Source of the DNA: an uncultured delta proteobacterium
GTDB lineage: Bacteria > Myxococcota_A > Polyangia > Polyangiales > Polyangiaceae
Direction of reading: 5' to 3'
Assembly: GCA_963782055.1 (NCBI GenBank)
Contig: CAWAIF010000003.1
Coordinates: forward strand, 5,440,001 to 5,504,000
DNA: 64,000 bases
The stretch's first letter is position 1; the number at the start of each line of letters is the position of its first letter. Both the position numbers and the translations under genes were made by a program. Below, one piece after another: positions 39,017 through 48,009 of this stretch. The notes beneath the pieces were generated by a model that did not search any database, was not told where the DNA came from, and saw nothing but the letters and a program-made list of their open reading frames with translations.

Positions 39017-39100
39017 CGGAAGGAAGAGGACTCGCACCCCACGCGGAGACCGCGCGCGCTGTTTTCGAGACAGGCCCGACGCTTGGTCGGTTTTCCTTCC
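39017..39100 (-). tRNA. Non-canonical tRNA-Ser(CGA)-like gene
   Basis: GGAAGGA AAA CCGAC-CAAGC-GTCGG GC CTGT CT-CGA-AA ACAG CGCG CGCGG-TCT-CCGCG T GGGG TGCGAGT CCTC T TCCTTCC G. Perfect 7-bp acceptor, G73, long variable arm; atypical A8, 5-bp D-stem, T-loop TGCGAGT, one terminal mismatch in each of the anticodon and T stems. Confidence 0.75.
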
Positions 39101-39102
39101 AG

Positions 39103-39128
39103 TCTCGCGCCGGATGCCCGGCGCGAGA
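39103..39128 (-). other. Perfect 11-bp hairpin between the HNH stop and the tRNA-Ser-like gene
   Basis: Plus strand TCTCGCGCCGG-ATGC-CCGGCGCGAGA. No U-tract follows on the minus strand; it ends 2 nt before the tRNA 5' end. Confidence 0.7.
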
Positions 39129-39139
39129 TCCCGCCTTGT

Positions 39140-39643
39140 TCACGCGCAGAACACCTGCCACGGGGCGGGGACGGTGGCGGGGTCGACCTGCAGCGCCGTC
39201 GTCGCCGGCAGCCACGAGGGCTTCACCGGCTTGGAGAGCAGGCGCATGTGCGCCTCCTCCGGCGTGCGGCCGCCCTTCCTGTCGTTGCAGGCGCGGCACG
39301 CGGTCACGATGTTCGTCCAGTCCGTCGGGCCTCCGCGGGCGCGGGGCACGACGTGGTCGTAGGTGAGCTCGCGCATCGCCCGGCGGGCGCCGCAGTACTG
39401 GCAGCGGAAGGCGTCGCGGGTGAAGACGTTCAGCCGCGAGAAGCGGACCGTCCGCCGCACCGGCACGTGGCCGCGCGTCAGCCGCACCACCGCGGGCGCC
39501 CGCACCGCGAGCGCCTGCGAGCGGATGATCTCGTCGTACTCGGCGACGACCTCGACCTTGCCGAGGAAGCTGAGCACGATCGCGCGCTGCCAGGGGATGA
39601 CCCTGTGCGGCGCCATCGCCGGCGTGAGCATGAGTGTCCGCAT
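39140..39643 (-). CDS. HNH endonuclease (McrA/HNH_5-like, zinc-binding)
   Basis: ATG 39643, 167 aa: FSRLNVFTRDAFRCQYCG, LTYDHVVPRARGG, WTNIVTACRACNDRKGGRTPEEA. Confidence 0.93.
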   Translation of the reverse strand: MRTLMLTPAMAPHRVIPWQRAIVLSFLGKVEVVAEYDEIIRSQALAVRAPAVVRLTRGHVPVRRTVRFSRLNVFTRDAFRCQYCGARRAMRELTYDHVVPRARGGPTDWTNIVTACRACNDRKGGRTPEEAHMRLLSKPVKPSWLPATTALQVDPATVPAPWQVFCA

Positions 39644-39734
39644 GACCGTTACCTTCGTCTCTTCCTCTTCACGAGGCTGCTGACGCGCGGCGCGGCTCGA
39701 GCCGGACGATGCCACCCGTCCGGGGTGGCGTCGG

Positions 39735-39806
39735 CGCCTCCGCCAAGAGTCGAACTTGGCCACCGAGCTTCGGAGGCTCGAGCCTGGATTCCGCCAGGAC
39801 GGAGGC
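39735..39806 (-). tRNA. Non-canonical tRNA-Arg(CCG)-like gene
   Basis: GCCTCCG T CCTGG-CGGAAT-CCAGG CT CGAGC CT-CCG-AA GCTCG GTGG CCAAG TTCGACT CTTGG CGGAGGC G. All four stems pair perfectly; atypical 5-bp D-stem with 6-nt loop; CCA not encoded. Confidence 0.85.
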
Positions 39807-39868
39807 CTGCGTCCACGGGTCCACGCGCCCTTCGGGTCGTGGGCCGGCCTTCGGCCGGACCTCGTGTG

Positions 39869-39896
39869 GACGCCATCGGCGACGCCGTCCTGACGC
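39869..39896 (-). promoter_or_regulatory. Putative ECF-sigma-type promoter/regulatory motif (copy 1) upstream of the tRNA-Arg/HNH/tRNA-Ser unit
   Basis: Minus strand GCGTCAGGACG-G-CGT-C-GCC-GATGG-CGTC, i.e. CGTCAGG-N16-CGTC; same motif and spacing as 47900-47927. Confidence 0.55.
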
Positions 39897-47899: not shown

Positions 47900-47927
47900 G
47901 CGTCAGGACGCCGTGGCCCCGCTCGTC
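47900..47927 (+). promoter_or_regulatory. Putative ECF-sigma-type promoter/regulatory motif (copy 2) upstream of the tRNA-Cys-like gene
   Basis: GCGTCAGGACG-C-CGT-G-GCC-CCGCT-CGTC (CGTCAGG-N16-CGTC), ending 10 nt before the tRNA-like 5' end. Confidence 0.55.
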
Positions 47928-47937
47928 TCCAGCCGAC

Positions 47938-48009
47938 GAGCCGGTTCTCTGACGAGGAGCGCGGTCTGCAACACCGTGCGCGAGGGTCTGATTCCCTCCC
48001 GGCTCTCCA
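47938..48009 (+). tRNA. Non-canonical tRNA-Cys(GCA)-like gene with encoded CCA
   Basis: GAGCCGG TTCTC-TGAC-GAGGA GC GCGGT CT-GCA-AC ACCGT GCGC GAGGG TCTGATT CCCTC CCGGCTC T CCA. Perfect acceptor and T stems, U73 (Cys identity); minimal D-arm and T-loop TCTGATT. Confidence 0.8.

Follow-up and report, generated by a model that had tools for sequence, protein, structure and literature searches.

The association of HNH endonuclease genes with groups of transfer RNA (tRNA) genes is already known, as is the 8/4 fold of certain tRNAs. In Anabaena PCC 7120, the HNH gene all8564, the trn operon, and rtcB were shown to be co-induced by translation inhibitors, with 23 of 26 tRNAs charged (PMC8421152). 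The same study proposed homing as the role of the All8564 HNH protein and described a general translation stress in which some of the array tRNAs are cut and not resistant. Both all8564 and rtcB are among the genes repressed by TrcR (PMC10272220). HNH genes have also been found in mycobacterial tRNA arrays (PMC5966550, PMC12803027), and tRNA arrays have been discussed as anti-defence units (PMC12803027). An HNH gene is present in nearly all tRNA arrays, for which a reason has so far only been proposed, namely homing.

Here, we describe a related locus on the minus strand of a 64,000-nt stretch of DNA, referred to as the window (positions 5,440,001 to 5,504,000 of contig CAWAIF010000003.1, assembly GCA_963782055.1), from an uncultured member of the Polyangiaceae with a genome of 7.58 Mb (72% GC, 97% complete). 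The unit consists of a tRNA-Arg(CCG), a mini-open reading frame (mini-ORF) made only of Lys and Arg codons, an HNH gene, and a tRNA-Ser(CGA); a tRNA-Cys(GCA) lies 8 kb away. We consider it probable (about 0.68) that the unit is an eroded, and probably still regulated, remnant of a myxobacterial translation-stress L-array, in which induction by stress would be combined with a leader-coupled synthesis of the HNH nuclease. As in the trn L-array of Anabaena, a homologous HNH gene stands beside redundant tRNAs, a promoter-like signal is shared with rtcB, and the full array (here, that of relatives) carries RNA-repair cargo. The differences are that the window keeps only two plus one tRNAs, that its HNH gene is embedded in the unit rather than upstream of it, that the locus is chromosomal and has a Lys/Arg mini-ORF, and that its signal is a bipartite motif resembling promoters of the extracytoplasmic function (ECF) type, whereas Anabaena has tandem repressor repeats. 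Like the array units described from mycobacteria, from plasmids, and from large phages (PMC5966550, PMC12803027), the unit has one HNH gene among redundant, structurally deviant tRNAs; in contrast to them, it is reduced and bears no sign of present mobility, and the mini-ORF is without mention in the parts of those two papers considered here.

The array ancestry is evident from the loci of HNH homologues. In the 30 best loci from the same family, 23 of the 29 other than the window have at least three tRNAs near the HNH gene, as do 42/80 metagenome loci and 55/80 viral loci. Larger regions contain arrays in which up to about 45 tRNAs were called and the order recurs (...Cys, Arg, Arg(CCG), Met, Met, Pro, Val, Ile, Leu, Leu, HNH, Pro, Ser, Ser...), and the cargo in relatives includes Ro60/TROVE, RNA ligase, 2'-5' ligase, and ARPP genes. 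The tens of co-oriented tRNA genes that characterize an L-array are therefore found at the orthologous loci and not in the window unit itself. A quick IQ-TREE tree was built from 132 rows, leaving out duplicate loci and proteins of less than 130 aa, with a midpoint root and with support from the Shimodaira–Hasegawa-like approximate likelihood ratio test (SH-aLRT) only. In this tree, the window HNH is nested in a 22-row clade (SH-aLRT 99) with array-embedded genes, and the members of its own eight-row subclade have kept between zero and four tRNAs, which differ from one member to another. The nearest rows have Arg-Leu-HNH-Ser-Ile (L001), Met only (L002, L004), or no tRNA (L053, L083, L005), and HNH genes with one tRNA or none also occur inside array-bearing clades among the Kofleriaceae and family f8. 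In L001, which is the closest relative with a name, the HNH gene still stands between the same Arg-type tRNA and 8/4 tRNA-Ser(CGA), and the L001 genome has an array-type tRNA-Cys in a separate small cluster. Comparison shows that the ancestors had about 15–45 non-canonical tRNAs together with Ro60/TROVE, RNA-ligase genes, and HNH, and that the lineage of the window deleted the stretches from Arg(CCG) to HNH and from HNH to Ser(CGA), left Cys(GCA) 8 kb off, and lost Ro60. On this comparison, the unit is an eroded L-array remnant and not a dedicated cassette.

The nuclease itself is a Pfam HNH/HNH_5 protein. Its motifs (C81/C84, D96-H97, N111, C116/C119, and N120) are intact, as had been claimed, and they are invariant in 85 aligned homologues out of 120 listed. 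The structure is predicted with a pLDDT of 89, and in a fold search only the HNH core matched solved structures, including the Geobacter Gme nickase (4H9D) and the HNH domains of IscB and Cas9; a protein atlas search with the N-terminal 70 aa returned unnamed clusters only. The best named homologues are Myxococcales/Polyangiaceae records. The protein is 39% identical (E 1e-26) to the HNH protein encoded beside 24 ARAGORN-called tRNAs of pCC7120delta, whose gene, lying next to the tRNA operon, is presumably all8564. With this identity and its nesting among array HNH proteins, it belongs to the All8564 family; the link to tRNA arrays and translation stress made in a preliminary description of the window is thus supported by the array context, by this identity, and by the motif shared with rtcB. 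By analogy with the Gme HNH, the most likely activity is that of a non-specific, metal-dependent nickase acting on damaged or foreign nucleic acid.

Could the HNH gene be a homing endonuclease gene of the SegB kind, which would cut array-less alleles and so move itself along with its flanking tRNAs? Homing has been proposed for all8564 and for mycobacterial arrays (PMC8421152, PMC5966550), and homologues exist in phages and plasmids. However, 129 of the 201 genomes of the order have a match to the family, in most cases a single one, and the composition is that of the host (the unit has a GC content of 0.72, like its flanks, and the HNH gene has a GC content of 0.98 at third codon positions). 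The gene has been retained without tRNAs in many lineages, its neighbours differ among genomes of the same genus, and neither repeats nor an integrase were seen at these loci. Because of its distribution and host-like composition, the HNH gene looks like an old retained gene rather than a recent mobile unit. The mobile unit that the preliminary description had considered is, as a recent arrival, also unlikely in view of this composition and of the single full-length copy in the genome. A homing origin of the present unit thus appears very improbable, while homing could explain an ancient spread among phages. The genome also has, at C2:137595–137942, another HNH paralogue that is more distantly related (48% in a partial alignment) and that many genomes of the family share.

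The three window tRNAs are extras, because ordinary Arg(CCG), Ser(CGA), and Cys(GCA) genes exist elsewhere in the genome (at C2:407735, C2:470993, and C3:5807615, respectively). Being redundant with this housekeeping set, they align instead with the array families; the tRNA-Cys at 47938 falls in the same array tRNA set. Two covariance models and blastn revealed no array-type tRNA in the genome beyond the two in the unit and the one at 8 kb. ARAGORN called the tRNA-Arg(CCG) at its default score (39806–39733) and the tRNA-Ser(CGA) only at a relaxed score (39100–39016), with the flag "possible pseudogene". Rfam model RF00005 matched none of the Arg, Ser, and Cys (47938) tRNAs at E<=1 or at E<=10, and in an Rfam scan of 28000–52000 it was the canonical tRNA-Arg(CCT) plus one chance match that were found, and nothing else. 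The window shows tRNAs that are missed by Rfam's model.

The reality of these RNAs is supported by covariation in sets of 19 array Arg(CCG) and 19 Ser(CGA) tRNAs from the loci around HNH homologues. In the Arg(CCG) family, 97% of cells are paired (slid controls, 37–47%) and 20 of the 22 pairs show two-sided change; in the Ser(CGA) family, 93% are paired and 25 of 27 pairs show such change, figures to be discounted to the extent that the sets were drawn from relaxed-score ARAGORN calls, which favour paired sequences, and that relatives are not independent. Both RNAs thus belong to strongly covarying tRNA families, and the window copies score like array members (Arg 90.8 bits, Ser 89.5 bits, with models that include them). 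The 5-bp D-stems with loops of 5–6 nt, already pointed out in the preliminary description, are real, since all five D pairs show two-sided changes in each family. The A20 invoked there as an Arg identity element is indeed present in the window tRNA-Arg; it is kept in just 10/19 family members. Two other details had to be revised: the acceptor stem of the tRNA-Ser is not of 7 bp but of 8 bp, followed by a 4-bp T-stem, and its eighth pair is formed in 19/19 orthologues (with two-sided change in eight); its anticodon stem has four pairs and a mismatch, at a pair broken in 15/19. With its 8-bp acceptor, 4-bp T-stem, long D-stem, long variable arm, G73, and Ser anticodon, the window tRNA is by sequence the (8/4) tRNA-Ser of Mukai et al. 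(PMC5389517). It shares with the allo-tRNAs of that study these features, a small D-loop, and an origin in tRNA clusters; it differs in having a D-loop of 5 nt and an Arg partner of 7/5 form with a 5-bp D-stem, a shape without description in the part of the paper considered here.

Table. Features of the HNH unit and of the related tRNA-Cys site (coordinates within the window)
Feature	Positions	Strand	Remarks
Bipartite promoter-like motif CGTCAG-N17-CGTC	39869..39895	-	ECF-sigma-like -35/-10; putative promoter of the unit
One copy of a genome-wide palindromic repeat of about 46 bp, resembling repetitive extragenic palindromes (REP-like), in the leader	39824..39863	-	not specific to the unit
Array-type tRNA-Arg(CCG)	39735..39806	-	7/5 acceptor branch, 5-bp D-stem right after U8, A20, G73; CCA not encoded
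Lys/Arg-only mini-ORF MKRKRRR (7 codons)	39649..39672	-	GTG start; codons AAG/AGG/AGA/CGA; stop 5 nt before HNH ATG
Gene of 167-aa zinc-binding HNH nuclease, array-associated family	39140..39643	-	N-terminal beta domain and HNH core; active-site residues intact
11-bp hairpin between HNH stop and tRNA-Ser	39103..39128	-	no U-tract
(8/4) tRNA-Ser(CGA)	39017..39100	-	8-bp acceptor, 4-bp T-stem, 5-bp D-stem, long variable arm, G73; CCA not encoded
Second copy of promoter-like motif	47901..47927	+	ends 10 nt before tRNA-Cys
Array-type tRNA-Cys(GCA)	47938..48009	+	third remaining tRNA of this array; located shortly before Arg(CCG) where arrays are full

The preliminary description was right about the tRNA-Arg(CCG), the intact 167-aa HNH gene, the 11-bp hairpin, and the tRNA-Ser(CGA). 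From these parts, it had proposed a dedicated minimal tRNA-HNH-tRNA cassette in which the tRNA-like ends would be processing signals of the nuclease or its RNA partners or guides, after the manner of HEARO/OMEGA or Y RNAs. The HNH core does resemble those of IscB and Cas9, and in L001 and phage Mx1, too, the HNH gene is flanked by tRNAs. Nevertheless, this explanation is hardly credible. The nearest upstream tRNA is Arg(CCG) in 0/80 metagenome and 0/80 viral loci (0/160 altogether), where it is mostly Leu; in phage Mx1 the order is Leu-HNH-ORF-Leu, and the array of phage Rctr197k ends in the same Leu-HNH junction. Flanking tRNAs differ freely in identity from locus to locus and are absent in many cases, close relatives keeping the HNH gene with different tRNAs or none. 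Moreover, the RNAs are ordinary members of the array Arg and (8/4) Ser families, with normal anticodon arms. A HEARO/OMEGA (IscB) system with an RNA-guided HNH was rejected because the 167-aa protein has the HNH core only, without RuvC or IscB architecture (45 bits with the IscB model, for a cut-off of 175), and because there was no Rfam HEARO match. Bacterial Y RNAs are tRNA-like and lack an anticodon arm. A Y RNA acting with Ro60 was rejected in turn, since the anticodon arms of both families covary, Ro60 was not found in the window's own genome, and no Y-RNA match was obtained in Rfam.

The region between the tRNA-Arg and the HNH gene had been described as a structured spacer. It is no more stable than shuffled sequences (z -0.5) and contains the Lys/Arg mini-ORF, the last codon and stop of which are overlapped by the HNH ribosome-binding site; in relatives, too, this codon and stop often double as the Shine–Dalgarno (SD) sequence of the HNH gene. 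A Lys/Arg mini-ORF is found within 150 nt upstream of the HNH gene in 21/30 same-family loci and in 23/108 loci overall, compared with 24/2113 random windows, and in 18/80 viral loci, compared with 32/2303 random windows. Large loci gave 148 crude ORFs, with nine such mini-ORFs, eight of which precede HNH. In 25 chromosomal cases, 22 have an SD, Lys/Arg codons amount to 141/171 in frame and to 61/146 and 29/146 in the other frames, and there is a single GAA codon; AGA, AGG, and CGA make up 63 of the 79 Arg codons, compared with 57/407 in the HNH genes and about 11% genome-wide. In the viral mini-ORFs, 95/113 in-frame codons are for Lys or Arg. Because the Lys/Arg bias is in frame, GAA occurs once, and AGA/AGG/CGA are preferred, selection, to judge from codon usage, is acting on the basic peptide or on these codons and not merely on purines. 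The marks of a regulatory leader (a conserved upstream ORF, its own SD, and peptide-level selection) are thus present at the level of the family, the window's own SD being weak. No other convincing Lys/Arg-leader gene was found among 41 candidates in the genome. The mini-ORF and, as a signal shared beyond the window, the promoter-like motif were missed in the preliminary description and are apparently new: the open-access literature, without supplements, yielded no account of the mini-ORF or of such a regulon in myxobacteria, those of PMC8421152 and PMC5389517 being places where such arrays or tRNA shapes may be listed.

Short upstream ORFs with consecutive Arg/Lys codons, placed so as to control the next gene, are known from orf34 of Salmonella speF (PMC6386406) and from macrolide leaders of the ErmDL type, in which Arg/Lys-X-Arg/Lys (+X+) motifs lead to arrest (PMC8298421). 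In contrast to these, as far as the parts of the two papers considered here describe them, the present leaders have 4–12 codons that are nearly purely Lys/Arg, a stop overlapping the next ribosome-binding site, and no conserved hairpin, and they precede a nuclease gene in a tRNA operon; control by them is a prediction.

The motif upstream of the unit does recur, as had been noted, before the tRNA-Cys. The two window copies share the form CGTCAG-N17-CGTC, and the one before the tRNA-Arg ends 62 nt from it (about 16 nt without the repeat). The initial pattern was exact at these two sites only, with 68 weaker matches in the genome, and an exact-sequence search of the relatives' loci gave nothing. 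A relaxed motif is present in 9/11 upstream regions of the eroded clade, compared with 80/20000 random windows and 1/125 other HNH loci (a duplicate), a comparison that is circular for the eroded clade, on whose sequences the motif was defined, and in which 2/11 are near-identical. Out of sample, the motif was found 12 nt before the genome's rtcB and before a truncated rtcB copy, before 4/15 similar rtcB genes and 1/30 more distant ones, and where three further array pieces (L164, L167, and L118) begin. The ECF41-type promoter, TGTCACA-n16-CGTC (PMC3426412), is similar in its -10 CGTC, its spacer of 16+/-1, and a -35 starting with YGTC; it differs in that the window -35 is YGTCAG/YGTCCG and in that the targets here are RNA-repair and tRNA genes. 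The motif therefore looks like a promoter of the ECF type, still putative, and it is the sole feature of the locus to bear on the L-array behaviour of being normally silent and of being induced together with rtcB by translation stress. Among the candidates rejected were an ECF41-dependent promoter proper, whose marks are a -35 of TGTCACA, a neighbouring ECF41 gene, and a COE target, the -35 here being different and only the architecture being alike, and sites for sigma-70, sigma-54, and WYL regulators (there was no sigma-70 match, and the motif is not an inverted repeat).

A list of 15 candidate regulon genes was mostly background. One candidate member is a 236-aa protein of no known family at C3:4176646–4177356, with the motif 10 nt upstream and a homologue that adjoins rtcB in genome G002. 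Upstream of rtcB, at C3:6825848–6829491 (L386), lie a HipA-family gene and a truncated second copy of the rtcB 5' end, which has the promoter-like motif as well.

How would such a unit work? A stress-responsive alternative sigma factor would read the motif at 39895–39869, as well as those before the tRNA-Cys and rtcB, and a single transcript would contain the Arg-tRNA, the mini-ORF, HNH, and the Ser-tRNA. RNase P and 3' nucleases would then excise both tRNAs, which would receive their CCA, and the excision would free the HNH message as a by-product. The Arg and Ser RNAs would be oddly shaped spare adaptors for use when housekeeping tRNAs or ribosomes are damaged. The synthesis of HNH would be coupled to the mini-ORF: a ribosome reading through would terminate atop the HNH start and re-initiate there, while a ribosome stalled on rare Arg/Lys codons or on +X+ motifs would cover the HNH ribosome-binding site. 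The nuclease would consequently be made only if the operon is induced and Lys/Arg decoding works, in other words during recovery, and lasting selection would be on HNH and not on the tRNAs.

Several observations weigh against this regulated remnant. The motif is absent from 11/15 similar and 29/30 other rtcB genes, shows no genome-wide excess at its spacing, and lies within 600 nt upstream of just 1/18 matches to array-start hairpins; most full arrays lack it near their start, and several have a leader ORF and a terminator-like hairpin instead. No cognate sigma factor was identified, a motif match within 900 nt being found for 3/41 sigma genes, and a repeat has been inserted in the leader of the unit. 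Contigs of sequencing run X1 gave only short stretches at low depth, which are uninformative as to expression. Outside the family, the mini-ORF occurs in only 3/75 metagenome loci and in 1/21 loci from other families of the order. Most members of the eroded subclade do not have it, and the window copy begins with GTG and is without the GGAG SD found in relatives; because of this loss and these degenerate signals, it may be decaying in the window lineage. No conserved RNA structure or hairpin switch was seen around it, which makes the direction of control a guess.

Some of these points would be expected if the unit, with the same origin, were a dying relic, its tRNAs and mini-ORF being unexpressed or neutral leftovers and only HNH, or nothing, being still in use. 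The redundancy of all three tRNAs and the absence of Ro60 (vWA_Ro60) from the 97% complete genome fit this explanation, as does the lack, with these queries, of array-type Arg, Ser, and Cys matches in genomes G111 and G045 of the same genus. Yet all of the Arg and Ser stems are intact, with two-sided differences from relatives; L001 retains the same pair of tRNAs; the promoter-like motif has been kept before both fragments and rtcB; and the mini-ORF is still an open, all-Lys/Arg frame, the only one in the genome scan in which every codon is of a rare type. A dying relic is, in our view, unlikely.

Another explanation, not exclusive of a regulated remnant, is an anti-phage or anti-toxin module, in which the odd tRNAs would resist or decoy anticodon nucleases and the mini-ORF would sense the loss of tRNA-Lys/Arg in infection and control the nuclease. 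The same HNH, array order, and mini-ORF are found in large phage contigs, arrays have been discussed as anti-defence units in the part of PMC12803027 considered here, and RtcB and Ro60 repair or handle cut RNA. On the other hand, PADLOC gave matches to the HNH core only and none at full length, none of the neighbouring genes in the window is of defence type, and the stress in Anabaena is a general one in which array tRNAs can be cut (PMC8421152). Such a module seems quite improbable as the principal function.

Whichever its function, the HNH gene repeatedly outlives its tRNAs. It has kept upstream of it a promoter-like signal that rtcB also has, and in one bacterial family and in many phages it follows a mini-ORF made almost entirely of Lys/Arg codons. 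The leader and the shared motif point, tentatively, to a control of the nuclease by ribosome performance. This leads to a broader, tentative and somewhat doubtful proposal: in Polyangiaceae-like myxobacteria and in many large phages, the conserved polybasic mini-ORF would gate the array-associated HNH nuclease as a sensor of translation health. Ribosomes would stall at its rare Lys/Arg codons if the corresponding tRNAs are cut, or at +X+ motifs in the presence of macrolides, and production of the nuclease would have to wait until the spare tRNAs of the array have brought decoding back. With the ECF-type promoter shared with rtcB, this would constitute a myxobacterial translation-stress regulon with the nuclease, rather than the tRNA set, as its core. 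The seven-codon leader and the 27-bp motif offer a small, testable handle on the control of the nuclease and on its role in translation stress.

The hairpin after the HNH stop is stable (z -4.5), with neither a U-tract nor a terminator call on the minus strand. The leader, described as structured (z -2.8), is mostly one copy of the dispersed repeat of about 46 bp, of which there are 63 copies in 30 clusters in the genome and none in the relatives' loci; a unit-specific RNA or ribozyme was ruled out for this reason. Some clusters of this palindromic repeat are tandem arrays of ten or more (e.g., C3:1343656–1344247 and 3482843–3483247), and copies also lie beside the tRNA-Ser(GCT) and the tRNA-Ala of an rRNA operon.

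Among the relatives, stable single-tRNA forms exist, with tRNA-Leu(GAG)-HNH in Nitrospirota (L046–L068) and tRNA-Arg(CCT)-HNH in family f8 (L152–L159). The 5' ends of full and partial arrays (L114, L118, L121, L167, and L169) often have a short leader ORF and, after it, a conserved GC hairpin that ends in a T-rich tail; this arrangement, absent before the window unit and present twice in series in L114, resembles a translation-coupled attenuator. Two arrays (L086:2172–2200 in G013 and L100:2228–2256 in G051) contain, about 170–230 nt past the HNH stop, a 29-nt stretch matching the 23S rRNA of the window genome (28/29 identical in L086). We take it to be the helix 69/70 region and the I-CeuI homing site; within a tRNA array, it is possibly an rRNA mimic or decoy.

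Elsewhere in the genome, a second, abundant family of dispersed repeats of about 80 bp gives rise to a false tRNA-SeC call at C2:59636. The 5' part of the housekeeping tRNA-Arg(CCG) recurs, nearly unchanged, 100 nt upstream of that gene (C2:407911–407996). This second copy has the anticodon CCT, its 3' end is broken, and it looks like an integration scar. At C3:6242435–6242514, a tRNA-like gene whose anticodon loop is enlarged, in the vicinity of AT-richer genes of foreign appearance, is probably a disrupted tRNA at the edge of an island.

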